A program made the translations under genes and the position numbers. Positions 2,149-58,776 of a stretch of DNA of 64,000 nucleotides are shown one piece after another. The notes under the pieces are model-generated. The model did not search any database, was not told where the DNA came from, and worked only from the letters and a program-made list of their open reading frames with translations. Numbering within the stretch: the stretch's first letter is position 1; each line of letters opens with the position of its first letter. Source of the DNA: Sarea resinae. Lineage: Eukaryota. Where the stretch lies: the NCBI GenBank assembly GCA_026026165.1, contig JAPEUD010000038.1, positions 1 through 64,000 of the forward strand, written 5' to 3'.

Positions 2149-3475
2149 TCAGGACTCTTCAACCTCTCCCTCTTCACTGAGTTCGTCCTCCTTGGACCCC
2201 GGAGTAAGATAGTGATTATCTTGAGTGGACCCACTTGTCCGGCCATTCGCCAGCTCATGGCCACCCCCATTAGCATCCAGTCGCTGTCTCTTTGCAGCCG
2301 ACTCCCCACCCCCACCATTTGTAGCATGATGAGAAGGTCTATCATCGATCCCGTTATATTCGCGTCCATCGGTGCCATTCCCTGCTTGGAGGACACTCTC
2401 ATCCCTGGAATGTTTTCCAAGCGTCTGGCCTCCACTCGAGACCGGAGCTGTCTGCTCAGGAAGGTCCGCGGCCTGTATAGGATCGCTACCAGGAGAAGGG
2501 GGCGTATTGGAGATTCTAGCACGAGTCCTGGCAAACATTTCGTCACCATCCTCTGGTGTTCGGGCATAGATGCTCTCAGCATGACGGAGGGGATTCTTTT
2601 CGTATATCGACGCCATACGATTAGATGCTCGTCGAATATCTACAAGCGCGACCCCAACGACCTTCCACCAAGGTTTCCCATCACGATCTTTGAAGGTAAC
2701 ATTGCAATGTCGGGCGGCACAATACAATGCAGCAGCAGCTATGGTCCTCGATGAGAAGAGTACACAGAGCATTGTGAGGTTGCTATCGCTAATGAAGGTC
2801 CACGCAGCGTGTCTTAATCGTTTGTTGTTCTCCTCGCCAAAGCAGGTCAATAAGTCGAAAAGAATTTTGTATGGAGGCTCCACCGACAGGTCGAAGCAAA
2901 TGGCTTCGAGAAGGATGTCTTCGTTGTGTAAGATTGTGTCGCGCCACCTCCAGTATTCCTTTGACTGCTCGTCTATTATCAAGCTTGGATTCTTCTGCGC
3001 AATTCGACAACATGCGATAACCAGCTCTCTCATTTTCCGGCAATTTTCCTCTACCTTAGATGCGAGGAACAGGGCGGTTGCTGCAATTGTCTGAATGGTC
3101 TCCCTATTAGCACGCTAGATAGTTGCGCAACTTCAGCATCGAACATACGTAATAATGGAGTCCAGGTCTTCCCGGAAGGTCTACCATGGAGTGACGCATG
3201 TAGAACCGGTGCAAGAATACACTGGCTACAGCTAGTGTCATCTGCGGTAACTTCAGCATGACACCGACTTGTGTGATGAAATTAACACCCTTTCCCCGGT
3301 TTTCCTCCTCTTTATCAAGGGACAAGCCATCCAGAGCTGACGGCGTTCGTCTTAAGTCTTCCTCTTCGAATAGCCATTGAGACTCAGCTGCCAATAGCAC
3401 AGAGTTTGGTGAAGCTGGAGGAACCTTGGCCGCAGACTGAACGGAGTGATTGATGGATTTGGGAGTAGGCGGCAT
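2149..3475 (-). CDS. pch1: Transcription-associated cyclin (cyclin T/K, Pch1-like), 2 exons
   Basis: QWLFEEEDLRRTPS, RGKGVNFITQVGVMLKLPQMTLAVASVFLHRFYMRHS, then after an intron (~3092-3150) TIAATALFLASKVEENCRK and EDILLEAICFDL: two cyclin folds plus an acidic tail. Confidence 0.88.
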
Positions 3476-10661: not shown

Positions 10662-13518
10662 TTAGATGTCGAAGTTACCATGATTGAACACAGTGTCCTC
10701 TCCGCCGCCGGTACTGACTACTCCGCTCATTCGGTCCTCCCTCTTGGCCTGAGGGGAAGCTGCCTCCTGCCATTGATTGTCTTCAGTTTCATCTTCGTCC
10801 ATTCGCTCAAGATCGTGATGTTTGAAATGCTCGTCGATACTACTCTCGTCGACAAAAGTGAATCCCTTGAAATTTGCTTGCATGCCAGGCGACAAAGGTG
10901 TTGATGCTGTCATATTGCCCGCAGCAAGTGCGGCTGCACGAGCGTTCAATGAGGCACCGGCAGGTGCGTTGGTGAATTCAGGGTCGAAGTTGGAGGTGTC
11001 TGTTTCAGATTTAAGCTTCGGCTTGAAAGGGGGAACGATATCCTTCTTCGCCAATGCTTCCCAATCCACGTCAGCGAAAAAAGGGTGCGCTCTGAGCTCT
11101 GCAGCATCATGAGTGGCACCAAGTCGATGTTTTGGGTTTCTATTGAGCAAGCCCTTGACAAAATTCCGACCCTCGGTGCTTAACGCATCTCTTGGAAACC
11201 TGACTTTGCCGAAAGCGATGTTCTTGTACATCTGCTGCGTGTCTTCGGCGTAGAAAGGGCTCCAACCACAGCACATCTCAAATACCAGGACACCGAGTGA
11301 CCAAAAGTCCACCATCTTCGTATAACCCTGTTCATCAAGCAATACCTCAGGCGCCAAGTACTCGGTAGTTCCACAGAAAGTATTCGTTGTGTCGTTCTTC
11401 GTTAGATTTGCCTTTGACAGACCGAAATCGCAAAGTGCAATGTGACCATTTGCATCGAGAAGAATGTTCTCCGGCTTAAGATCCCGGTAAACGATATCGT
11501 ACTGGTGAAGATGTTCAAGTGCGAGAATTAGTTCCGCGATGTAGAACTTCGCACGCGCTTCTTGAAAGCGACCTTCTTTTTGCAAGTGCCAGAATAATTC
11601 ACCGCCAGACATATAGTCCGTGACCAGGTAGAGGTCGGTCGGTGTCTGGAACGAGAATTTGAGGCCCACGATGAAAGGAGAATCGGCCATCGCGGTTCTG
11701 ACGAGTATATTGCGCTCCCCTAGAGTATGCGCCACCTCTTTCTTCTGCACGATGACCTTTTTGGAAAGGACTTTCATTGCGTATATACGCTGAGTATCCT
11801 TCTTTCGGACTTGATACACCTGACCGAAAGTTCCTGAGAAGTGTCAGTACTGAGATTCCTTGACGTTGCTTTAATGATTGTACCTTTCCCGATCAATTTA
11901 AGTATTTGGAAATCCTCCGGTCCATAATGTCTCTTATCCGTCTTAGTATACTTCATACGCAAGAATATCTCGCCGGAGATATGCTCTGTTTCGTGGCCTC
12001 TCGATTGAAGCTTGAACCATCCTTCTAACAAAGTCTCCTGTTCGTTGAGATTTGGGCAGAATTTGACGTGACCAAGGAATGCTTCTTGGTTGTTGTTGTC
12101 GTAGACAGATACGTCTATCTCGGAGTGCTCGCCAATAACATCGCTATGGGAGAGTCAGCAAGGGCCCTTGTCAACGTGCTCGGAATATATGCATACAAAA
12201 CTGCTTCATGATCCCATTTTGGATCGGTCACCAATCTACCACCTTTAGAGTCCTTAGAGTCAGACAGACTGGTGTTGCTACTCTGCCGACTTTTCATGGG
12301 TATGGCAAGCGGTCGTCCTCCATCGCTATCGGATCGACGTATAGCTATACTGCCTGTAGCTTCATCATTCGGAGAACCCTCTCGACTAGTATCCATTTCA
12401 TCGTTCTTCGGACCTTTAGATATGTACTCGTTCCACTCGAAGACGCAGACCACATAAGGGTCATGGCTTGGACGTAATCCTTTTGCCTCAGATATATTGA
12501 CTGTCAGTTTTCCCTTTGGAGGTCCTACCGGAGAAGCTGTTTCCGTTGAGCCTGTCGAGGTGGACGGAATAGTAGATCGTTCGGCAGCGGCCAATTGCTG
12601 AGCGTTCGGCTGAGATGAGGCGACTTCCTGAACGGCAGAGCTCGCTGTAGTAGCAGAAGCACGCTTGTTATCCGAACTTGGATCATCTGATGAGGCTGAG
12701 GCTCTCGGAGTTCCAGGGGGAGTACTCTTCATTCGTGGCGAGGTTTGAGCGCCCTCAGTCAGCTTTTTGAGCCCATGGTATGAGGAATTCGAAGAACGCT
12801 CAGAACTAGACTGTGCAGGAGGACTTGGGCTTGGGGGAATGGTCGAAGAAGGGGGGATGGTCGAAGGACCGTTTGAGGTAGGGTTCGAAATGTGAGCAGC
12901 ATGAACGTTAAAATCCGTGATAATGCTGGAGAGGGGGGCTGCGACTGTGAGGGTATGTCTGCGCGCTCGCGAAGGCATGGCACTTATGGGCAGGTTCTTG
13001 GCTTGCGCTTCTCGCGCACCCGAACCGGACCCAGCGCCGCTCTCATCATTTGCGCCAGGTTCATCTTTCCTCGATGTGGATAAAGAGGACGATGATGAGA
13101 TTGGGGGAGTCGGATAAGCAAGAAGGTCTTCTTTCTGGGGCGCTTCCTGCTCCGGCTTTTCCAATCGCTCATGCGGAAGAAGCGGCGGATACTCATGCTC
13201 CTCGCTTGCGTTTCCGTCTGGCGAATTTGGAGCCGTGGGAAGCGCACCAACCTCCTGCATCGACTCTCGATAATGTATGGGAGTATAACTTGCAATGCCT
13301 GCATCTAGAGCTGGTGTGACAAGTGCTGCAGAAGGGTTGGTACAAGATCGAGCACGAACCTGTCCAAAGTAGCTGTGCGCGATACCAGGTAGACGCTTGT
13401 CTGCTGGGTTAGGCTGTGGAGTGACTATTCCCGACGGCGACGATCGCTCAGATCCAATCTGATCATGCACATCTTCGTCCATCCGACTGTGAGGTTCGTG
13501 GTCGTTAGTGAATGCCAT
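10662..13518 (-). CDS. sch9: AGC Ser/Thr kinase Sch9/SchA/Sck1 (C2 + kinase domain), multi-exon
   Basis: C2 region (KGKLTVNISEAKGLRPSHDPYVVCVFEWNE), LIGKGTFGQVYQVRKKDT, YRDLKPEN, DFGLSKA, NTFCGTTEYLAPE and hydrophobic motif FKGFTFVD. Confidence 0.95.
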
Positions 13519-14561
13519 AATGTGAGAAGGGTCTAGACTGTGGGCTGCTCGAGGGGGGGCAATTCCACTAGCGAGCTGAGTGTCCCGAGACGAGCTGGGG
13601 TAATCAGGAAGAGCGAGGGGAATGGTTTTGAGACGTTGCGTGTGGGAGGATCAGCGAGGCCGGATCCATCGATTTGAAGGGAAAAGATATAATGGGACGT
13701 GACTGGATAACAAGAGAAAGGAGGAAGAGAAGGGTAGGACGTGAAGGAGGAGGGTTGGAGCGAGTGGAGGCTTGTGCAGAGCCTAATGAGTAGTAGTGAC
13801 GATTCGGCTTTTCCCATCGAGAACCGACACTCGGAATAGACGAAAATCCCAAACCCGGTGTCAACTGGCACCTAAGTAGCAGGGTCGAAAGAGGCCAAAA
13901 ATGGGTTGGATTACTGTAGCAATAAATGCCAAACCCGGAGGTGAATTGCACCAACGATGCATTGCGCATCTGGGCTTGTACACCTTGGGACACAGGAGGG
14001 AAGACGACCGATGGAAGACGAAGAATAAAACATCGCATGCTCACCTTCGTAGCAAAGTCTGTCTCAGCAGCTCCGGACTCGCAGGCGGACCGACTCCGGC
14101 ATGGGTCGCCATTGTTGGACGGGAGACTCCAAAGCGATGTACCGCGCCGCGTCTGACAAGCCAAAGCAGAGCGTATTCACCCAGCAGTACAGGGTCTTGA
14201 AACGCAACGACGGCGTGAAGTGGACGATATGATGATTATTGTTTGGCGTGATTGTTATGTCTGATAAACTCTCTAGTCACAGGCGAGACGGGTCGCGAAG
14301 TCGTCTTGTGGGGTGCTTCGCCTGAGTGGGGAGAAGCTGTGCACTTGGCCACACGAGGTAGGACGTCAAACGGGAAAGAATTCGAGTAAGAAGTGACTTT
14401 GAAGACTGAAGATGTAGGGTATAAGGTATTCCTATGATCAGATGATGGTTTACGACTCCATGTATTGGTGTACTGCCTGAAAGAAGGTGTTGACCGATGA
14501 TACTATGATGCTGTGGTGGTTGCTGAAGCCCAAATGTGACAATATTGGGATCAGGTCGATA

Positions 14562-36546: not shown

Positions 36547-39527
36547 ATGGCGACACCGCCAATAGCAGAAGACCAAGCTCGTCTGCTCGAAGATGCCTTG
36601 GCAGTCGTGCGGCAACAGACTCATCTGATGCGCAAATGCTTGGAGACCCCCGGGAAGCTTATGGATGCGCTGAAGTGCAGGTATGGGTGGCCTCACACGC
36701 TTCGACCCTGCCGTAGCATTCGTGGTGCTGTCGGACAATTGAGTGCGTTGCGATGCTGACCTTAACTCAGTTCAACTTTGGTATCAGAGCTTCGGACGAG
36801 CAGTTTAGGACCGAAGCAATACTACGAGCTTTACATGTCTGTCTTTGATGCCCTGCGGCACCTCTCCGTCTATCTTCGCGAGAGCCATCCTGTCAATCAC
36901 CTTGCCGATCTCTATGAGCTAGTCCAATATGCTGGAAACATCGTCCCCCGTCTCTATCTCATGATCACCGTCGGAACTGTTTATATGGCCATAGAGGACG
37001 CGCCCGTCAAAGAAATCATGAAAGACATGATGGAGATGAGCCGAGGAGTGCAACACCCGATTCGAGGCTTGTTCTTGCGATACTATTTATCAGGTCAGGC
37101 CCGGGATCATTTGCCAACAGGGAATGGGGATGGGCCCGAGGGAAACTTGCAGGACTCGATCAGCTTTATCCTGACAAACTTTGTCGAAATGAATAAATTA
37201 TGGGTGCGGCTGCAACATCAAGGCCATTCCAGGGAGAGAGAGCAGAGGACAAAGGAAAGACAGGAATTGCAATTACTTGTTGGCAGCAATCTTGTACGAT
37301 TGAGTCAGCTTGTCGACCTGGAGGCCTATAAGAATGTGATTCTTCAGCCTCTACTAGAGCAAGTTGTACAGTGCCGAGATGTGCTTGCTCAAGAGTACCT
37401 GCTTGAAGGTGGTCATTTCCCCGAACATTCAACGGGCACGCTGACATGCTCCTTTTAGTCATTACGCAAGTATTTCCTGATGAGTTTCACCTACACACTC
37501 TGGACCAATTTCTGTCCGCTACAGCGCGACTGAATCCTCATGTCAATGTCAAAGCCATCGTTATTGGACTCATGGACCGTCTATCAGCGTATGCCGCACG
37601 AGAGTCAGAGTCAGCATCCCGAGAAGAGAAAATCAGCTTAGAAGAAGAGGCTACTGCAAAATTGTTGGAGAAATTGAAGATTTCGAAAGAATCCAAGATG
37701 CCAGCTTCGAAAGCCGACGAGCCTGTTGGAGATTCAACCGAGGGCTCTAAAATCAATGGCGAAGCAGCAGCCACAGAGGAAGTGTCCGAGGAAAATTCGG
37801 ATGAAGCTCCGACGAATGCTGAAGTTCCACCAACTAATGGAGATTCTGGACCGAAGAAGAGTTACGGTATCCCAGAGAATGTGAAACTCTACGAGATCTT
37901 CTACGAGCAAGTACTCAACCTCATTAGCGCGCAGCGCCTCCAGATTCAGGATATCACGGCTCTGCTTGTCTCACTGGTGAATCTGGCATTGTGAGTATTG
38001 GCTTATTTCGGGGGTTGGATGGACGTCCACTAAGTGTGACAGGAATATCTATCCCGAGCGACTCGAATACGTCGACCAGGTCATATCCTATGCCAAGGAA
38101 CAGATCGCCATACATGCAAACAGTCCCGATCTTCACTCTCCCCCATCGCAGACCAACATCCTCAACCTTCTCTTAGCTCCGATCAAATCATACTTTTCTC
38201 TGTTCACCGCCTTGGCACTTCCTAATTACATCCCTCTACTTCAATCTCAGACATATCCGATCCGACGAGCTGTAGCCGCAGAGGTGTCGCGAAGTATCCT
38301 GAGAAATCAAACTAAGATTTCCAGCGCCGAAAATCTTGAAGGTCTGTTAGAGATACTGAAAGTACTGGTCAAAGAGGGTATGCAGCAGTCGGCAGGATAT
38401 CCTGGTGTTCAGTCTCAAAGAAGGGGTGTCGAGACGGACGAGTCCCTCGAAGAACAGGGCTGGCTACCTCGAATCACGCATCTCATCCAGGGCCCGGACA
38501 ATGACACCCAGTTCAAAGTTAGTGGCCCAGCCCTTGTGCTGAAATGCTTGCTAACAACGAATATCAGCTCCTCCAAATCACGCGTAAAGCTTTCGCCGAG
38601 GGCAATGAGCGTATCAAGTTTACTACCCCTGCTCTCATTACCGCCTCCATCAAGCTAGCTCGCCGCTATAAGACTCGAGAGCATTATGACGATAATTGGT
38701 CATCTCAATCTTCAGCCCTATACAAGTTCATGCATACCTCCCTTTCTGCACTCTATACCAGGGTCAATGGTGCTGCAGATCTATGTCTTCGGCTTTTCAT
38801 CGCATGTGGTCAAGTCGCTGACCAGACAGGATTCGAAGAAGTCAGCTATGAATTTTTTGCACAAGCCTTCACTATCTACGAGGAAGCCATCAGTGATTCA
38901 CGGGCGCAATTCCAGGCTGTCTGTGTCATTGCTGGGGCTTTACACGGGACGAGAGGTTTCAGCAAAGAGAATTACGATACATTAATCACCAAATGTGCTC
39001 TACATGGCAGTAAGCTGCTCAAGAAGCCCGATCAATGTCGGGCGGTGTATCTAGCAAGCCACTTGTGGTGGGCAATGGAGATCCCGGCAAGGGGCGAAGA
39101 AGATTCGAAAAACGTAAGTCACCCGATACGACCAAAGAAGTTATCTACTAAATAATCGAGCAGCTTTATCGTGACGGCAAACGGGTGCTGGAGTGCCTTC
39201 AGCGGGCTCTCCGAGTAGCGGATGCTTGCATGGACACTGCCGTCTCAGTCGAGTTGTTTGTCGAAATTTTGAACCGATACGTGTACTACTTTGATCAGCA
39301 GAATGAAGCGGTAAGTTAGACGAAAATTCCGCCGCTCAAGCAATTGTCCTAATGATTGTCCTTAGGTGACGACAAAGTATCTGAACGGTTTGATCGAGCT
39401 CATCCATTCGAATCTGCAAACGAATCAAGATACCGCTTCGCTTGACAATCCGAAGAGGCATTTCCAGAGGACGTTGGAGTATATCTCGTCAAGGGAGTAT
39501 GAGGGCGTTGTCACTTTGCCAAAGTGA
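36547..39527 (+). CDS. vps35: Retromer subunit Vps35, multi-exon
   Basis: [68 protein letters not shown] and [13 protein letters not shown]. Stop TGA at 39525-39527. Confidence 0.96.
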
Positions 39528-39841: not shown

Positions 39842-40835
39842 CTAGACTGTCTGTAGAAATCGAACCACTCTCGAGATGAGGTCTGCGACGACCTTTTCGG
39901 GACTGCCGATCAGATTATGAGCAGCGCCTTCAACGACACCCGAGTTTTGATCATCAGCGACCCCTCCTCCCTCCTTGATGATACCGAGCCACTTCTTCAC
40001 GAGTTTGGCCTTATCAAAGAACTTTGGCGCAAACTCGTCATTTCCAGAATATATGATGCACATTGGCGTTGTCTTCGGCAGTTTCCCAAACGTGCCCTGC
40101 AATTTCTCCAATGACAGATCCGAGCTGAAGAAGTCGTCATCCCCATCATGATCCGGACTTGCCAGACTCAACCACCGTCGAGCAGAAACAGCAGAGCCAA
40201 AGAATGATGCCGTCACTTCCCCCGGCATGATATCCTCCCCTTTTCCGTCGTCGACATAGTGTTTCGCAATGGCGCAACTGCGCTCATATACCCCTGGCGG
40301 GAGAGCTTCCACCATGGCCTCGCGATCACTGACGGGAGCCTGTATGATTGCGCCGTTTATAGTCTCTCGCTTCTCATGGCCAGGGCCAACCAAATATTCC
40401 ATCACATCCTGACATCCCGTCGAGTGACCCATCAGGACGATCCTTCCCCCTGGACGGAGGCTCTTGAAGTACGCGACGCATTCGGCGATTTGGGAAGCGT
40501 CTTTGGCAAGAGAGGAGACACCCCAGCCGGCATATGAGGAAGAGAATAGAATTTCGACGAGCGAATAAGAGGCTGGAAGGATGTGGGCGAGACTCGTGGC
40601 ATAGGGCACGGTGAGGAGGCCATCGAATAGACCGCCGATGAAGATGAGGGTATTGTTCGGGGGTACAGGGGCCGTGGGGGAGGCGTGTTCAAATGCTACA
40701 AGACCCTTGGACTGCGAGAAAGTTGGCATTAGCTTTGTTGACTCTAGAGTGGGAGATCGAGTTCTCTTTCATAGCAACAATCGCGCCTACATAATTGTGC
40801 AGCACGCCAGGGCGAGCGGCTGGGGTGAAAGACAT
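39842..40835 (-). CDS. DUF1749-family alpha/beta hydrolase, 2 exons (40791-40835, 39842-40711)
   Basis: PGVLHNY|SKGLVAFEH, LIFIGGLFDGL, MGHSTGCQD, QAPVSDRE, DDDFFSSDL and GAAH. Confidence 0.88.
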
Positions 40836-44418: not shown

Positions 44419-45885
44419 TCAAAGACCAGTCTTCCTAGCCTTCTTCGCTGCACCACCGACCCCACTCATGGACCCGGCGCGCTTCTTGCCCTTGACAAAA
44501 CTGCCACGACTACCCTTGGTCTTTTCCGGCGACGAATTCTGACTCGAGGAGCTGGCCGCTGATTTCGTGCGTTTAAACTCATCGAAGGGAGAGTGGACCC
44601 TCGCGATGGAGCTAGCTTCCTCATGACGAATCCTCTCTTCGTGCGTCTGCACGTGTGGAAGTGAAGCGGGCGTGTAGAATTCATCCGCAGAGTCGTGGGA
44701 CGGATGGCGGTCATCGTGGATGTCTTTGGACGGGTCCGAGATGTGCTTGCGGGTTTGGCGAGGAGTGGCCGCAAACTCATCCATTTCGTCGCCATTGGCC
44801 ATGCTGGAATCGGCTTGGGCACGTTCACGGCGTTGCGCTTCGTTGGGGAACAGGAGGCGAGGTTGGACGGACTTGCGGGAGATTTCACGGGGTACACCGC
44901 GTCGGATGTCGCCGTCGTTCAAGATATTCAACTCGTCCATTGAGCCGTTCCCATCAGATTCGGAGCCCTCGTCATTGAATCGGCGGAAAACCTTGTTGCC
45001 ACGGCTAGAGGAGATACTTAATTTTGAATTAGAAGTGAGCGAGGAGTGATTCACTTACAATGTGTAGAACATGCCAATGTCCTTCTCAACGGCGTAATTG
45101 ATCCTGGCGCTCTCATAGGTCTTGTTTTTGGTTTTGTTCACAGCCTCAATGGCCTCCTTTGCCTGACGTTCCTTCCGATCAGGTGCGACGTAGAATGGAT
45201 TGTCCTCACTGGTGTCGAGTTCGGGAACCCGATCTTTCGAATCCGTGAATATCTCAATGTCCTCATCCTCCTCCTCATCTTCACCAATCATCGAGTAGAT
45301 AGCATACTTCTTGCTGCGCTTTGCTTTCTTCGGAGCCGGCATCAATTCATCAACACTGTCTAGATGCGATGAGAAAAGGACCCGCGAGGTCGCGCCCAGA
45401 CCCCCGGAAGGAACATAGCGCTTGCTCTTGGGCGTCTTGGCCGGTGTTGGTAGTACGGCTTTCTTTGCCATTGTTGAGTCCGGTCCGGAGTTGAAATCGC
45501 TGTCGTCGGAAGACATGCTGAAGGAAGGCGGATTGACAAAGTTGGAGTGAATATCTCTCACTTCCGACTCAAATTCAGGACTGCCGGTCCTCGTAATCTT
45601 GGTCAAACGCTTCTTCGGAGACGAATGCGCGGAGGGTGGAGGTGAGAAAGTCAGAGCTGAAGCGCGCGTGAAGTTTGTCTTGCAGGACTTGGAGCGTTTG
45701 CGTAGTGAGAGTTCGAGTGTGGAATTGGCGCTGGACGGTGAAGATGGTAGAGGTGGAGTTTGATGAGCGCGAAGATCGTAACGAGTTTGAGTTGAGTTAC
45801 GCGTGGGCGAGGGGTCAAATCTAGCGCCGAACCGTGGAGCGGATGGAGTGCACACCGAGGTGCGCGGTGGAGGAGTGGTTGCCAT
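44419..45885 (-). CDS. Rum1/Sic1-like CDK inhibitor candidate, 2 exons (45059-45885, 44419-45004), 470 aa
   Basis: Intron 45005-45058 (GTAAGT...CTAAT...TAG) joins GMFYT-F-RGNKVFRRF. Motifs TPPP..CTPS, LPTPAKTPK, DNPF, YxFRGxK and QPRLLF are collinear with S. pombe Rum1 as I recall it. Confidence 0.7.
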
Positions 45886-47806: not shown

Positions 47807-49234
47807 TCATTTCTTCTTCGACGCAGGCTTCTTCCCAAAGAAATCACTCATCTTCCTCATCCCCGACGTGTCGACCTTCTTCAGCTCCCTCATGGCCCTC
47901 GATTCCCCGGCCTTCTTCCTCTTCTCTTCCTCCTCCTTTTTCCGCTTCCTCTCCGCCCGACCCTCCATCGCCTCATCGTCCTCCTCAAAACCCCGTTTCC
48001 GGCTGAAGTCTCCCAATGACCGAGAGGCAAGCGCTTCAGCGCGAAGAGCTGCCAATTTATCCAGATGCTCTGTCAGGGGTGCGAAATTTAACGGACTGGT
48101 TGGAAGGGAAAGAAGGGCGTTGAGTTTGGTAGTGAGAGGGAGCTGGATGTAGGACGCTAGGATGAAATCTAACGATATTCGTAGACGGAGGAGATGTAGA
48201 AGTTCTTTTGATGCTGCTGAAGGAGATTCTTGCGTTACAGGGGCGGATGCCGCATCAGAGACTGACGTCGCTGGAGTGGATGTGTTTGTTTGGGAATCAA
48301 GCGATGGCTCCGAGCTTGTTGACTCGGAAAGCATCTCTATGCGGGGAGAAGCTGTAGCAGCTGCAGGTCCTTCCGTCGCGATCGATTCCTCTGCCATCAG
48401 TGAGATGGAGCTGTCCTCGCGCTTTACGCTCATAATGGGGACCTCGAGCGCCCTGCGGACGAACTTCTCCTCCAAACTTGCCGGGAGGCCTTGGCGTACG
48501 GCTTGCTCTGCTTTCCCCAGGAGGACTTTGAGCAGTTTTTCATGACTCAACCGGTACATCTTCTCGTCCCCTGCATCCACCGTGTCGCATATCGCCTCCA
48601 TTCTGTCTTCGAGGAGCCGGCGGATTTTTGGATGGGAGAATATCCGAGCATGCTTTGGTAACGCATCGGTTAGGGTATCAATATGATCGTCGAAAGAGAT
48701 GAACAGTTGATTGGGCGTTTCGGATTTGGTGGACGGTGAAGTGGGACTCAATGCTGGCAGGAGGAGGAAAATTGGGTCGAGGGGAGTCGCAACGAGAAGG
48801 TCCGCCGAATTCATTATGTAGCCTTCTGAACTTGATGAATTGGGCTCAGTCACGTCGACGGAAGACTCGACCACAGATGGCGCGTCGTTTGCAGCGCCAT
48901 CGTTCTCAATTGGTTTCGCTGCTGCTTCATCTGAGTTTGCCTTTGCCTTTGGGCTTGCTTGCTTTGCGAGCAACCAACTTCGGGGTACGCTCTTTGGGGC
49001 GGCAAGCTTGGTGAATTCGTAGAAACCCTTCTCAGGGCAGAAATAGTAGCGATTAGGAGTCGAGGTTCGGGGATTGGCCAATGTGACTATACGTGCTTCA
49101 GCTGTCGCATTCTGGGGGAGGACGAGGAGTTTGGGGGGATTTGGGTCATTCGCGTGCTGAGCAGGGGCTGGAATGGAAGTTGAGGTGGATGCTTTTTTGG
49201 AGACGGGCTTGGTGGCTTTGGCTCGAGTTCTCAT
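47807..49234 (-). CDS. rnh202: Ribonuclease H2 subunit B (Rnh202/Ydr279 family)
   Basis: RIVTLANPRT..RYYFCPEKGFYEF, LLVATPLDPIFLLLP, ICDTVDAGDEKMYRL and C-terminal PIP-box-like VDTSGMRKMSDFF. Confidence 0.88.
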   Translation of the reverse strand: MRTRAKATKPVSKKASTSTSIPAPAQHANDPNPPKLLVLPQNATAEARIVTLANPRTSTPNRYYFCPEKGFYEFTKLAAPKSVPRSWLLAKQASPKAKANSDEAAAKPIENDGAANDAPSVVESSVDVTEPNSSSSEGYIMNSADLLVATPLDPIFLLLPALSPTSPSTKSETPNQLFISFDDHIDTLTDALPKHARIFSHPKIRRLLEDRMEAICDTVDAGDEKMYRLSHEKLLKVLLGKAEQAVRQGLPASLEEKFVRRALEVPIMSVKREDSSISLMAEESIATEGPAAATASPRIEMLSESTSSEPSLDSQTNTSTPATSVSDAASAPVTQESPSAASKELLHLLRLRISLDFILASYIQLPLTTKLNALLSLPTSPLNFAPLTEHLDKLAALRAEALASRSLGDFSRKRGFEEDDEAMEGRAERKRKKEEEEKRKKAGESRAMRELKKVDTSGMRKMSDFFGKKPASKKK

Positions 49235-49345
49235 CTTTGCGAGTGTGATGAGCTTTCCAATGGAGTGAGAGTGAGAGAAATGAAGGCCGAACAAAGTAAT
49301 AATTACATGCGATGAGCTGCAGTTACGTGCAATCCGCCGTGGTTG

Positions 49346-49397
49346 ACGCGCGGTAGCGAAGGACGCGAAGACGGAGACGAGACGAGATGAGACGCGT
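49346..49397. promoter_or_regulatory. MCB-like (ACGCG) cluster in the rnh202/mcm10 divergent promoter
   Basis: ACGCG at 49346, ACGCGA at 49363, ACGCGT at 49392. Confidence 0.55.
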
Positions 49398-49662
49398 TTC
49401 AACCACTGCACGTACCCCATGTGCAGTGGGCTGTTTGGACCATTCCCGCTGTTTACATGCGTTGGATTTCACCAACCTTCGAGCTTCAAGCTTCAAGCTT
49501 CGAACCCTTCGTGATTGCTTGAGGACAGCGGACTGTAGTCGATCTGCTACCCACCAGCGACAAGACGAGCATGCTCTGACTCTGGGGACGGGCCGTTTAC
49601 CCTCCCCTCCACAAAGGACTGACCATCGAAAAGTCGCATGCTTGGCTGCGCCGCCATGTGCC

Positions 49663-52347
49663 ATGTCAAGAGGTAGGCACTCCGTAATGGGGGAGCTATG
49701 AAGTGAAGTGCAGCATTGACAATAGCCTGCAGCCTCCGTTGAACCAAATTGGCCTCCTCGGTCGCCCCATGAGGCATTCCTAAGTTCACCCTCTGGTCGA
49801 AATAAACAGCGCCGGCTTCAGGAACGACTATCACCCTCTCCATCGCCCCTAAAAGGCCGAACATTGACTCCGTCTTTCCGAGAGCGATCCCGGCGGCTTC
49901 TTCATGAAGAGGAGGATGTGGATGTTGGCGACGAAGACGAAGACGACGAGGAGACGATCCAGCTGCAACTCCAGGCCATCGAGGCCCGCTTGAAACTCAA
50001 GAAGCTGCGTCAGGCGAGAGCGAAAGCTGCTGCGCCAGGTTCCGACGTCGAACATGACCGAGAAAGAGGGTCTGGAAACTCTAGTAGGGCGGGCTCTGCG
50101 GCTGACCGCGAACGAGGTGGCCCCAGGGTGGGGAGGTTGTCGAAATCCAAGTCTCAATCAGATATACAAGTCCCACTTTCGCCTCCAGAAAAGAGAACTG
50201 TTACACAGGAGCCTAAATCGCCAAGCAGAGTGCTTTTGGGAATAGACAAAGGCCTGAAAGGACGCAATGTCTCCCTACGCAGGGCCCCGAGCCTTCGAGA
50301 GGAGAATGGACGGAGCCAAACTGCTCAGGGTTCGAGTCGTGAACTCTTTTGCTCGAATACTTTTGGTGGGTCGCTACGATCAACGAACACGACATCCACC
50401 GGACTAGAGAGACAGCCGAAGACTTTTAGTGAAAGAATAGCAGAGAGCAGATTGAGTGAGCGGGAACGACAGGAGAAGCAGGAACTCCTACGCAAATCAC
50501 GAAGTAAAGGATTCGGACTCGGCGAGAATGAGCTGAAAGGTCTCAAAGCGGCAGCCGAAGCTCAAGAACGCAATGTAGAAAGAGATCCTCCAACGACATA
50601 TGGCGAACGCGAATATACGAGGGAGGAAATCTTGCAGTCGCTTCATGGCAAGCACCTACACAGGGGTCGCACTTCTTCAGACTTAGATGCTGGTTTACGG
50701 CGAGCAAGAACACCGGCAACAAAGAATGCATCAAATGACTCGTCTGCTCGATCTCAAACACCAGCATTTTCCAAAAGGCTCCCAACGTCTGAATCCCAGC
50801 CTCAGTCAACCCCCCCTTCCGACCCCCCTTCCGACCTTCAGCCCAAGGCATCCAACGATACGACCTCTTCCGATCCCTCCCTATTCGAGTCCTTCTCCTC
50901 CCTCCATCTTTCGAAACGTCTTCTCCCCCACAAGTTCCTCACCCGCACTCTCGAGGGCAAGAGTCTATTCTCCATACCAGATCTCCTCAAGATAGTTAAA
51001 GCACCGGCTTACGACGCCCCCGACGTACCCACCGATATTGTCATCTTTGGTACCATCGCCTCAAAATCGACGCCAAGATCACACAAAGAGGATGCTCACA
51101 GAACGGCCACACATGGCGAAAAGTCCGATAGCGGCAGGGGAAAGTACATGATTCTTAAACTCACCGACTTGAAATGGGAACTCGATCTCTTTCTCTTCAA
51201 CACGGGCTTCGACCGCTTCTGGAAACTCACTCCTGGGACCGTCATCGCCGTCCTCAACCCCACCATCATGCCTCCTCCAGCCCATAAACGCGACACGGGC
51301 AAATTCTCCCTCACACTGAACTCCAGTGACGACACTGTCCTCGAGATCGGTACAGCCCGGGATTTGGGCTTCTGTAAGAGCGTCAAGAAAGACGGCCAAG
51401 TATGCAGCCAATGGATTGACAAACGCCACACCGAATTCTGCGAATTTCACGTCAATCTCCAACTCCAGAAAACCAAAGCTGGCAGAATGGAAGTCAATAC
51501 AATGACTGCCCCATTCGCTCCCGGCGGTCGGTCAGCGTCCGGAAATACTTGGAGCCGAGGCCGAGGTGCTAAAGCTAAGGACGACGGTCTTAAGAAGGAA
51601 GGCCCTCAGCACGACCGCGAAACTCATACAGCCTTTTTCATCGCCCCTGGTCGGTCCGGCGGTGGCGGCCGTACCACAGCCTCCCTTCTTGATGACGAAG
51701 ACCATGACCCGGACATCTTCCACCGCGGCACAAACAAGGAAGAACGGCTACGCCGCCGTCTCGCCGAGCGCGAGCGCGAACGCGATATTGCGCGCAAACT
51801 GGGCGAGAGCGGTACTGGTGGCGTGGGGAGTACCATAGGTGCCGAGTATCTGCGCGCTTCTCGCGGTAGTGGCGGTTCAGGCGATACAGCAAACGACGAC
51901 ATCAATAGCAATCCCAACGAAATCCTCGGAGCGGCGAGAAGTCGAGAGCTCATGGGCGTGAGAGCAACTGATGTACGGCTTAGTCCCATGAAGCGCAAGC
52001 GCGCCCTTACGTCTACCTCCAAGTCTTCTTCGGGGGCGATGGGCTGGTCAGGCGCGTTCAGGCAGGATCTCCTACCCATGAGTCCTACGAAGAATACAGT
52101 GGAACGGAGGAGTCGTTCTCCGGCCAAAACAAGTGGCATGGTGGAAGGAGTAGCTGGCGATGCTCAGCCTCCGGTGCGGAAAAAGACCCGATTCGTGACT
52201 GCCAAGGGGATCAGGGAGGCTGGAAGAGAGAGCCTTGGTGGGCTTGGTGGAGGTGCGAGCGGTATCAACAATCACGGAAATGAAGACCATGATAATCACG
52301 ACGGAATTGACGATGACGACGATGACGACGGGCTTGAGATCGTATAG
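49663..52347 (+). CDS. mcm10: DNA replication factor Mcm10/Cdc23, short first exon
   Basis: Spliced N-terminus MSR|ASVEPNWPPRSPHEAFLSSPSGR, coiled coil LQLQAIEARLKLKKL, OB fold (GTIASKS, KYMILKLTDL, PGTVIAVLNP) and CCCH zinc finger DLGFCKSVKKDGQVC...FCEFH. Confidence 0.92.
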
Positions 52348-56184: not shown

Positions 56185-58776
56185 TCAACGTCGCCCCAGG
56201 TCCACATCCAACACCTTCTTCAACTCTGGCTTATGTCTTGCAGTCGTACTCTCCTCCCCACTCGCCTTCGCGCTGAACGAGTCCCACCCCAGAAATTGTT
56301 CTAGAGCCAAGCTAACAACGTTTTCCCACAGCCTTGCAACAATTCCCTTCAAGCTGTCGCCCGTCTGCGCAAAGTCGGGAAAGGCGTTGATCTCTAGTAA
56401 CCAAGCGTTAGCCTGGTCGTCGACCAGAAAGTCAACGCCAAAGACCTCGAAGGCATTGGGCAACGGCTGGAAATGCGTTGGCATAGTGCGGGCGGCAGCG
56501 AGGAAGACTTCACCCGTGACGGCGCATATCTGAGCGAAGACGTCTTCCTTCCAACCGGCAGGAGCGGACGACGAATCCTCGAACGACCCAAAGGGCTGGA
56601 CGGAAGAGGGGTCGGGGTTCGCGGACTGGAGACAGGTATTTGTGAGATGGGAGTCTAGATCTTGGTTGGGGTCTTCCGTCGACCACGGTGGTGAGTACGG
56701 CGTCCGAGCGAAGAGAGCGAGCATTTCTGGGTACACGTAGACTTTTAGAGAGCCGATAGCTAGTACGTAAGTTCTGATATGAAATTTGCGGGGTTGTCCT
56801 TCATTCGCCCCTGGAGTCTTGAGCAGAAGAGGAGGGTCAATGTAAGGCTGCGCGATAAAGTGGCGCAGTTGCGACGTGACGATACCTGAGCCAGTCTTCT
56901 CGTCATTTTCGTTGGCCGCCGATTGCTCGGGCTCACTCTCTGGCTCATCATCAGTATCGGGTTCCTCCTCTTCCCATTCTTCGAAGATTGACGTTAGCTC
57001 TTCTTCGGTGCTAAAGAGTCTGATGCCCTGGCCCCGGTCACTCATTCCCGGTTTGAGGATCCACCACTCTCTCTCGTCTTTGTCCTTTCCCTCGTTTCTT
57101 TGCCACGATTCTCGAAGTTCATAGGCCTCGAGAAGTGCATCGTCCAGGAACTCTGCGTAATCTACTTCGAAATCTATAGCTGGCTTAATGTGCTTTTTAA
57201 GGATCGAATCAGGGTGCTTCGTGATCCAATTGAATACTGTCGTTGATAAATAGTGCTTTCGAATCAGCGCCTTCCGGATAACGTACGCGTTGGCGAATGA
57301 TGTCTTTGGATGAGATAGGATATGTTCGAAATCTAGGGATTCATATGAGGTGATCTGTAGGACCGGTACACCCGGTTCTGGGAGATCAGAGGTTGACTGA
57401 ATAGTTTTGTGAAGTGAACAGCGGCAGCTTTCGAGAGCCCGAAGGATAAGCGGTTGCACATAAGGGTCTTCGTAGTCGATCAGCACACTCAATGGGGGCT
57501 GAGAAGAGTTGGGTGCTTCGTTCCTGAAAGGAGATTGGAATATGTTAGAAGACACGAGAGCATCTAGAAAGCTCGTCGTAGGCCGTGAATAGCAGATCGA
57601 AATGCAACAAACTTTTGCCATCATAATCATTCATTCATTGACGGAATATGCCTATTTGCGCTATAAACACGATATGCTAGTCCACTCACAGCTTCAGCTC
57701 TCCTTCGATCGGCGAGGCATGCATGAAATTGGCTTTCAACGGAGTGACACTGATCCCATGTCAGGTCATCGGGGATATTTAGCAGAAACAAAAACAAGGT
57801 ACGACTCACCTGGTGTACCCCTCTTTAACCGCCCAGCCATCATTGCCCGGCGGCGCTTTCTCGACGCTCTGATAGACGTCAGAGAATTTTGGCGCCCACT
57901 TGAAATGCTTATGTTGATGCCTAGAAACTCCATGTTCTATTGTCTCATCCCCATTTATCTCCTCCTCCCTGATCTGTTTTTCGTGTTCCTTCGGGTTCTC
58001 TTCCTCATCCTCAGCTTCGACCTCCTGAAAGGAGCTCCCCGACGACCAATAATTTTGAAGCATATTTGTGAAGACGACCTTGTGGCTCTCCACATCCTCG
58101 ACCAACGGCACGTTCACATTATAGAGGTCCACGCCAGCACTCCAATTTCGATATAGATGCTCGATCACCTTGACGGATAGTCTCGATGCCCCCGCAATGA
58201 TTTCTGGATCATGATTACGTGAGAAAAATGCATATGACAACGCAATGGCTCGCCTTCCGCACACGGCCGCTTCCAGAGCACCGCCGATAGTGCCGCTTGA
58301 TAACGCGAACACTGCCGTCGAGTTTCGACCGTAATTCGGTCCGGAGACCACCAGGTCAACGGGACTTCTGTCCTTGAAAAAGTGATAGAGCCCTATCTGT
58401 ACACAGCTGGCTGGGGTACCATCAACAAGAACCCACTCTTCGCCTTTTGCGCCTTGTGGTAATGGCCGTGAATGTGTCGTTCCGTCATCCTTGTGTACGG
58501 TTCCAGGTCTGAAATAAGTGGGAACTACAGTCGCTCCAACTATATGCGCCTTCCCGATCCATGATCGCTGGGTATGAGGCAGCACAACCGACACGGTGTG
58601 GCCGGCAGCCTGCAGATGGCTGATGAAAGAATGGACATACGGAGACGATTGGTTGGACGGGGGTCCGTCGTCGTTGACGACCTAAAACGAAATCTCTTGT
58701 CAGTCCAGACAGGTCCACCGAAGCAAGCACCAAGCACCGAGCACAGCAAAGGAACCACCCATACCAGTATATGCAT
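56185..58776 (-). CDS. pby1: Pby1-like SurE + tubulin-tyrosine-ligase (ATP-grasp) fusion, 4 exons (58765-58776, 57810-58681, 57690-57749, 56185-57523)
   Basis: SurE motifs MHILVVNDDGP, QRSWIGKAH, GTPASC, SGPNYGRN and SSGTIGGA. TTL motifs IRKALIRKHYL, WILKPGMSDRGQGI, RKFHIRTYVL, HLTNTCLQ, FEVFGVDF and LLEINAFPDF. Confidence 0.9.

Follow-up and report, generated by a model that had tools for sequence, protein, structure and literature searches.

A stretch of 64,000 nucleotides of the Sarea resinae genome (GenBank assembly GCA_026026165.1, contig JAPEUD010000038.1, positions 1 to 64,000; hereafter the window) carries on its minus strand, at 44419..45885, a two-exon gene of 470 codons running from ATG to TGA. 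We describe here the gene, its product and its relatives, and weigh the proposal that it encodes an inhibitor of cyclin-dependent kinase (CDK) of the kind represented by Rum1 of fission yeast (Schizosaccharomyces pombe) and Sic1, the Clb-Cdk1 inhibitor of budding yeast (Saccharomyces cerevisiae).

The start ATG is located at 45885, with an in-frame stop four codons upstream. Exon 1 (45885-45059, minus) opens with MATTPPPRTSVCTPSAP and closes with GMFYT and two bases of a Phe codon, and exon 2 (45004-44419, minus) runs from RGNKVFRRF to the TGA. The intron between them (45058-45005, minus, 54 nt) is in phase 2, within the Phe codon of YTF/RGNK, and its splice signals are canonical, with a GTAAGT donor, a CTAAT branch site and a TAG acceptor. 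When the exon translations are joined across the split Phe codon a product of 470 amino acids is obtained, 100% identical to the NCBI entry 'MAG: hypothetical protein M1819_003916 [Sarea resinae]' (relative P0003). An earlier reading made from the letters of the DNA (the sequence-only reading) had called both the 54-nt intron and the 470-residue spliced product, and these are confirmed by the identical NCBI protein and by the conserved position of the intron in relatives.

The conservation of the intron was evident from 184 short open reading frames (ORFs), which are prokaryote-style gene calls of relatives on fungal contigs. Among these, 157 stop exactly at ...DGxxYVL*, corresponding to read-through of TT/GTAA, five more extend by a few residues, and two continue through YVFRGKK. 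In the full-length models of relatives FRG(K/R/N)(K/R) is contiguous across the junction in 132 of 133 cases. Since the short ORFs stop at the read-through and the full-length models are contiguous, this phase-2 intron, which splits the Phe of YVF/RGKK, is, judged from these sequences, an old feature with a position conserved across the family, and exon 2 is part of the protein. The intron is absent in some lineages, as the frame runs through YVFRGKK on contigs of 12.5 kb and 27.5 kb (L003 and L008). These carry a complete intron-less homologue (L003:1260-2588, plus; L008:1458-2786, minus) of at most 443 amino acids, counted as a stop-to-stop frame, in which LPTPNKSP replaces LPTPAKTP. Comparison of the sequences shows that at least one lineage has lost or altered the intron as well as the second of the two threonines in the candidate degron described below.

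A 163-nt contig from one soil metatranscriptome run maps to 44804-44966 with one letter different. It falls entirely within exon 2, with nothing from the rest of the gene and no bridge across the intron, and is silent on splicing; no intron-spanning RNA read was found.

Conserved islands and predicted structure

An alignment of 49 family members (A1, mean column identity 37%) shows ten conserved islands in a variable background rich in S, T, P, K and R, followed by a basic tail. The first five are TP.TP.HG (after an N-terminal M(A)TTPPP), MLPTPAKTP(R/K)K, AR.LF(P), KK..G.SL.SF and I.I.TDS.D..PE.D.S..NPF, and the remaining five are R.DG..YVFRGKK.FRKF, RP.TRSSIKPR.LFP, EEA.TDIE, P..PP.T..R..R and SPFD.W.R.K. 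The five blocks singled out by the sequence-only reading are all present, in the same order and where it had placed them, and they coincide with conserved islands of A1 beyond chance. All 49 members contain LPTP[AS]KTP, NPF and two R/K-x-L-F/W motifs, and 48 contain FRG[KRN][KR]. KEN boxes are found in none of the 49 members and D-boxes in two.

The window protein has 14 S/T-P sites. Its N-terminal S/T-P cluster MATTPPPRTSVCTPSAP is encoded at 45885-45835 (minus strand, as are all parts of the protein given below), and T4, P5, P14 and P17 are invariant in A1. LPTPAKTPKS (45453-45424), a candidate di-phosphodegron of the Cdc4/Fbw7 type, is invariant at L145-P148 and K150-P152 and holds two CDK sites, T147, which in the window protein has the full S/T-P-x-K/R consensus, and T151. 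It is followed by TSRVLFS (45390-45370; family consensus AR.LFP), the first of two R-x-L-F motifs and a candidate for cyclin docking, with conservation of at least 90% at A167, R168 and L170 and an invariant F171. The next two islands are KKYAIYSMIG (45312-45283; family consensus KK..G.SL.SF) and IEIFTDSKDRVPELDTSEDNPF (45258-45193), the latter ending in the invariant NPF (EDNPF in the window) and invariant at I212, T214, D215, P221, N229, P230 and F231.

The candidate kinase-inhibitory element is a predicted helix and beta-hairpin, GMFYTF-RG-NKVFRRF, at 45120-44977 with the intron included, which was delimited from the AlphaFold2 model and the corresponding A1 island. Beyond it, SRKSVQPRLLFP (44880-44845) contains the second R-x-L-F (and L-x-F) motif, QPRLLF, and precedes a helix at residues 331-344; R319, R325 and L327 are invariant in this block, and conservation reaches at least 90% at K323, P324, F328 and P329. 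SPFDEFKRTK (44592-44563) corresponds to the family consensus SPFD.W.R.K, a motif present in 44 of the 49 members. The basic C-terminal tail GKKRAGSMSGVGGAAKKARK (44490-44431), with R451 and K463 invariant and K450 at least 90% conserved, is a candidate bipartite nuclear localisation signal.

The protein was predicted to be largely disordered, as the sequence-only reading had supposed. AlphaFold2 run on A1 gave a mean pLDDT (predicted local distance difference test) of 51, with 287 of the 470 residues below 50, and the ESM Atlas model had a pLDDT of 0.45. The only confident AlphaFold2 elements are a helix at 256-267, the beta-hairpin at 271-276/279-284 and the helix at 331-344 after QPRLLFP. 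The hairpin block reaches a pLDDT of 84-90 exactly at YTFRGNKVFRRF, in the most conserved block YVFRGKK.FRKF; values of 82 were obtained over residues 221-230 and of 71-83 in the region of the second R-x-L-F and helix 331-344. The model thus combines disorder with a short element that may be able to fold on a kinase. A Foldseek search with the low-confidence model gave no related fold at E<=0.001, which is expected because the protein is mostly disordered.

Distribution and naming of the family

With exon 1 as query 125 proteins were retrieved at E<=0.001, and the profile of the 49 sequences in A1 gave 666 matches at E<=1, the best 120 of which were examined. Named relatives come from lichen fungi of the Lecanoromycetes type and from Eurotiomycetes, Dothideomycetes, Sordariomycetes, Leotiomycetes and Xylonomycetes, so that by sequence similarity the family occurs in many Pezizomycotina. 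Clustering of the 133 full-length members with cut-offs of 50% identity and 80% coverage gave 22 groups, and the alignments indicate that the family evolves fast outside its motifs.

Among the matches listed, the relatives are named 'hypothetical', 'uncharacterized' or 'unnamed' with two exceptions, and names of the 'hypothetical' type are also borne by entries of Aspergillus niger, A. oryzae, A. flavus and Coccidioides. Two names depart from this pattern. They are 'RNA recognition motif family protein', used in A. niger and A. tubingensis, and 'Shugoshin C-terminal domain-containing protein', assigned automatically; relatives P0093 and P0485 and an Atlas cluster of 51 members bear them. Both are probably misnomers, because no Pfam family was found in the five members tested. 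The expectation that such proteins are usually annotated as hypothetical is thus in agreement with the names of the relatives, apart from these two. They had also been presumed to be little characterised in moulds, and a literature search, with orthology databases and subscription papers outside it, returned no characterised CDK inhibitor or Rum1/Sic1 homologue from Pezizomycotina. A 'Rum1' in a paper on A. fumigatus occurs only in its strain table and was not taken as a homologue; presumably it is an unrelated PHD/JARID factor.

Two entries stand apart. A divergent partial homologue (L001:804-1619, minus; L002:1-738, plus) scored 123 bits against the A1 profile, compared to 216-400 bits for the other family loci, and is marked by IFKKF, by an acidic linker of reduced length and by SIFD in place of SPFD.W. 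P0502, a 1505-residue model from Colletotrichum lupini named '5'/3'-nucleotidase SurE', is probably a fused gene model, because in spite of its name it shares a 90% cluster with the family (that of P0114). A SurE gene is also present in the window (57806-58681, minus), 12 kb from the gene described here, and together with the fused model this hints at old synteny.

Comparison with Rum1 and Sic1 and alternative explanations

We consider it probable (roughly 0.7) that the protein is a stoichiometric inhibitor of B-cyclin-Cdk1 of the Rum1/Sic1 type, the Pezizomycotina counterpart of these proteins, and that it is destroyed through SCF-Cdc4 after phosphorylation by CDK. The interpretation builds on the motifs, which are present, ordered and conserved as described above, and on the disorder of the protein, with binding, inhibition and degradation modelled on the yeast proteins.

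The Cdc4 phosphodegron of Rum1 is listed as PPTPAKTPK, with T58 and a phosphosite at +4, T62 (Table 1 of PMC1802738), and LPTPAKTPK of the window protein is identical to this string in eight of nine residues. The likeness of TPAKTP to the T58/T62 degron, part of the sequence-only reading, therefore holds against the published peptide. According to PMC7195536, CDK phosphorylates Rum1 mainly at T58 and T62. Rum1 is a CDK-phosphorylated and unstable regulator that is described as the only CDK inhibitor in S. pombe, and fission yeast needs it to arrest in G1 before quiescence and mating. At the level of motifs LPTPAKTPKS would be a CDK-dependent Cdc4/Pop1 phosphodegron, and the family protein too would be CDK-phosphorylated and unstable by design. 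On the other hand, with its 470 residues it contrasts with a Rum1 of roughly half that size, as implied by the name p25rum1, and the family has the extra conserved blocks AR.LFP, KK..G.SL.SF, I.I.TDS.D..PE, EEA.TDIE and SPFD.W.R.K. Rum1 has a PP2A-B56 motif, 39-IDEIPE-44, upstream of its degron (PMC7195536). The core of this motif is resembled by a D(R/K)(I/V)PE island of the family (within 45258-45193, residues 218-222, with an invariant proline), which is without the first hydrophobic position and follows the degron, whereas the Rum1 motif precedes it.

The N-terminus recalls Sic1. Sic1 starts with MTPSTPPRSRG as given in bioRxiv 10.1101/427476, and its T5 is reported as a Cks1-dependent priming site (PMC7160111). 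The window protein begins with MATTPPPRTSV, with T4 and P5 invariant, as compared to MTPSTPPR in Sic1, and MATTPPPRTSVCTPSAP is a candidate, at motif level, for an N-terminal S/T-P cluster that starts a phosphorylation cascade. For cyclin docking, the RXL2 peptide of Sic1, RVNRILFPT, is described as a Clb5-specific docking competitor that competes with Clb5-dependent phosphorylation (PMC3115021), and PMC7160111 gives KRTLFQF as the 89-RXL site and VLLPP as the LP motif. The family sequence AR.LFP (ARILFPS in P0005, ARVLFPT in P0010) is similar to RVNRILFPT, and all 49 members have a motif that may serve as an RxL-type dock for B-type cyclins. The RxL-type motif proposed earlier is thus matched by two conserved R-x-L-F motifs, the first of which is like the Sic1 peptide.

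As described in PMC7139818 and PMC7160111, Sic1 is destroyed via SCF-Cdc4 after multisite phosphorylation, and its TP cluster is followed by the degron/RxL region and then by the inhibitory domain. The elements of the family protein come in the same order, with the candidate inhibitory element C-terminal of the degron and docking region, in a disordered protein whose N-terminal TP cluster may serve for priming; by analogy it would likewise be an SCF-Cdc4 target after multisite phosphorylation. It differs from Sic1 in having one strong di-phosphodegron, and in that about 140 residues follow the candidate element, whereas the inhibitory domain of Sic1 is reported as its last 70 residues (title of a paper cited in PMC7139818).

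PMC7139818 presents Sic1 and p27 as homologous in function, although their sequences have very little similarity. The comparison may by analogy be extended to the Cip/Kip/KRP proteins such as p27Kip1, which are disordered CDK inhibitors where an RxL(F) motif docks on the cyclin and folding occurs on the kinase. The order of elements is different, however, since in the family one RxLF precedes the hairpin and one follows it. Moreover, the exon products and the five full-length members searched have no Pfam match of any kind at E<=10, and no p27, p21 or p57 chain in the PDB was matched by the family profiles.

Several results gave no link to Rum1 or Sic1, or speak against an inhibitor of this type. 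Neither Rum1 nor Sic1 was among the matches listed for the exon-1 search (E<=0.001), nor among the best 120 of 666 for the A1 profile run with a shortened first row (wider length window), nor among the best 120 of 153 when residues 1-340 of a single relative were compared with proteins shorter than 243 amino acids. A 73-position profile covering the exon junction and KPRLLF gave 265 matches at E<=0.001 against 1.84 billion representatives, and neither protein was among the best 150 of these; 136 of the 137 newly found matches carry family-type extra blocks. Rum1 and Sic1 are missing from the matches listed because closer relatives or exon fragments take those places. Metagenome contigs were also scanned for DNA that could encode G..YVFRGK(K/R)I.(K/R).F without interruption, by means of a degenerate pattern that bypasses intron-bearing Pezizomycotina DNA. 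Of the 12 loci found nine are family members (intron-less or transcript-derived, with full-length or partial ORFs), and no Rum1-like short architecture was seen among the 12. One of the others (L009) is a weak, chance-like ORF of 62 residues, and two (L007 and L010) have no family match.

Also on the negative side, the exon products and five full-length members matched no Pfam family at E<=10, including the CDI family of Cip/Kip/KRP proteins (PF02234); in favour of the proposal, this also means that no other family claims the protein. No credible PDB chain was matched by single products or by profiles A1 and A3, and the best rows (Mam1, E 0.14; a nucleotidase, E about 1; MJ1481, E 0.1) were taken as chance. 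Two ESM Atlas searches returned the family's own clusters and, as weak leads, Sld2 (0.79) and a 239-residue Ascomycota cluster (0.77). The canonical PP2A-B56 motif [LMFYWIC]..[IVL].E is present in just 17 of the 49 members. The window protein is itself a divergent member, with FRGNK in place of FRGKK and QPR in place of KPR, and lacks TDIE and SPFD.W.

In a literature search for YVFRGK, FRGKRI, KPKLLF and KPKALF no paper was found that prints an inhibitory block of Rum1 or Sic1; KPKALF occurred only in an unrelated COVID paper, and MEPSTPP in no paper found. The inhibitory block of Rum1 is presumed to contain GLYYVFRGKRIKKSF and FKPKLLF, strings that, like that of its N-terminus, no paper was found to print. 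For Rum1 the order TP cluster, NPF, YVFRGK-type block and KP.LLF is presumed, and YVFRGKK.FRKF with KP(K/R)LLF would correspond to the region of inhibitory similarity between Rum1 and Sic1. Of the sequence-only reading as a whole, the degron, the RxL motif, the disorder and the naming were upheld, while the likeness of the inhibitory block and of the N-terminus to Rum1 is presumed. Furthermore, the three motifs matched to papers (degron, RxL and TP cluster) are short linear motifs, which occur in plain CDK substrates and can converge.

The protein could accordingly be a CDK substrate and SCF-Cdc4 target with another job, for example as a regulator of replication, mitosis or transcription, which inhibits no kinase and whose hairpin and other islands bind some other partner. 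This is the main alternative, a degron, an RxL motif and TP clusters alone not making an inhibitor, and we regard it as rather unlikely. All that could be verified is equally typical of CDK substrates, namely S/T-P clustering at the N-terminus, CDK sites of full consensus, a di-phosphodegron, RxL docking motifs and disorder, and the conserved blocks KK..G.SL.SF, I.I.TDS.D..PE, EEA.TDIE and SPFD.W.R.K are without an assigned partner. In the Atlas feature search an Sld2 cluster appeared at rank 11 with a score of 0.79, which is a lead only, and the neighbouring genes for RNase H2 subunit B and Mcm10 are replication-related. However, Sld2/Drc1, Whi5/Nrm1, Shugoshin_C and all other Pfam families went unmatched at E<=10 in the five members searched, KEN boxes and D-boxes are absent and rare, respectively (0 and 2 of 49), and the degron is nearly letter-identical to the Rum1 peptide in PMC1802738, which goes beyond likeness to a consensus. 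The presumed match of the hairpin block to the inhibitory region of Rum1 and Sic1 would likewise point to inhibition.

It is less probable still that the family is unrelated by descent to Rum1 and Sic1 and has assembled similar short motifs independently, whether or not it is a CDK inhibitor. Short linear motifs are stated to evolve convergently (PMC7139818), the matches listed include no significant alignment to either yeast protein, and the length of the family protein is about double what one would expect from the name p25rum1. Such convergence is nevertheless disfavoured, because the degron shares with Rum1 the residues A and K, which are no part of the consensus (peptide in PMC1802738), and because the motifs are collinear, the TP cluster, RxL motif and C-terminal inhibitory domain coming in the N-to-C order described for Sic1 (PMC7139818, PMC7160111); vertical descent across the ascomycetes is the simpler account. 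That the gene model is an annotation artefact, with only the 276-codon exon-1 ORF or nothing at all expressed, is hardly credible: intron-spanning RNA reads are missing and the sole RNA contig falls in exon 2, but exon 2 is conserved in frame (islands RPLTRSSIKPRLLFP, EEA.TDIE and SPFD.W), the intron-less homologues L003 and L008 continue through YVFRGKK, the junction is common to 132 of 133 full-length models and the splice signals are canonical.

Genomic surroundings and a possible role in mould G1/S control

The window is an ordinary piece of fungal chromosome and shows no operon-like logic. At higher coordinates the next gene encodes RNase H2 subunit B (47807-49468, minus; Ydr279 domains), and beyond it lies that for Mcm10 (49726-52347, plus; OB fold and primase zinc finger), so that two replication-related genes adjoin the candidate G1/S regulator. 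On the lower-coordinate side are genes for a DUF1749 hydrolase (39842-40768) and Vps35 (36766-39155). A Pho80-type cyclin (PF08613; 25066-26649, plus) and a cyclin T/C-like gene (Cyclin_N and CycT2-like_C; 2149-3114, minus) are also present, and no Cdk1 or B-type cyclin gene was found within the 64 kb. An AGC kinase gene lies farther off, as do a TTL gene, the gene for Rsc7 and the SurE gene mentioned above. An open frame of 511 codons with no Pfam match (12115-13650, minus), directly upstream of the frame with the AGC kinase catalytic domain (10662-11843, minus), is probably a disordered N-terminal exon of that kinase. Mlu I cell-cycle boxes (MCB, ACGCGT) number eight in the window, compared to 9.9 expected, and none is found in the 5' flank of the gene.

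Taken as a Rum1/Sic1-type inhibitor, the protein could act as follows. When CDK activity is low it would be stable, and nuclear by virtue of its basic C-terminal tail. Through its two R-x-L-F motifs it would attach to B-type cyclins at their hydrophobic patch, and the small hairpin YVFRGKKIFRKF, together with the following KPRLLF segment, would block Cdk1 stoichiometrically. As G1-CDK activity rises the N-terminal TP cluster would be phosphorylated, and Cks1-assisted multisite phosphorylation would next reach T147 and T151 of LPTPAKTPK. SCF-Cdc4 would then bind the completed di-phosphodegron, leading to ubiquitination and degradation of the inhibitor and to release of S-phase and M-phase CDK.

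A more tentative view, to which we give less than even odds, is that the Pezizomycotina protein represents the full-size ancestral CDK inhibitor of ascomycetes, a hub of about ten motifs and the missing G1/S brake of moulds, with Rum1 and Sic1 as reduced derivatives. At the level of motifs the family protein combines a strong di-phosphodegron of the Rum1 type with an RxLFP dock of the Sic1 type. It is conceivable, and held with equal reserve as the ancestral view, that KK..G.SL.SF, I.I.TDS.D..PE, EEA.TDIE and SPFD.W.R.K recruit phosphatases, Cks1 or export/import factors.

Stoichiometric inhibitors of CDK determine how long G1 lasts and safeguard the licensing of replication. From its sequence features, the gene described here is a credible, clade-wide candidate for such an inhibitor that has gone unannotated, and a family definition of the Pfam type could, if the assignment is correct, be made from alignment A1. 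The gene would then offer a concrete single-gene handle on G1/S control, on the asynchrony of nuclear cycles and on developmental arrest in moulds, and well-defined point mutants could be aimed at T147/T151, at both RxLF motifs and at the hairpin. If the view of an ancestral hub is also correct, the family would be the missing G1/S brake in moulds, many pathogens included.

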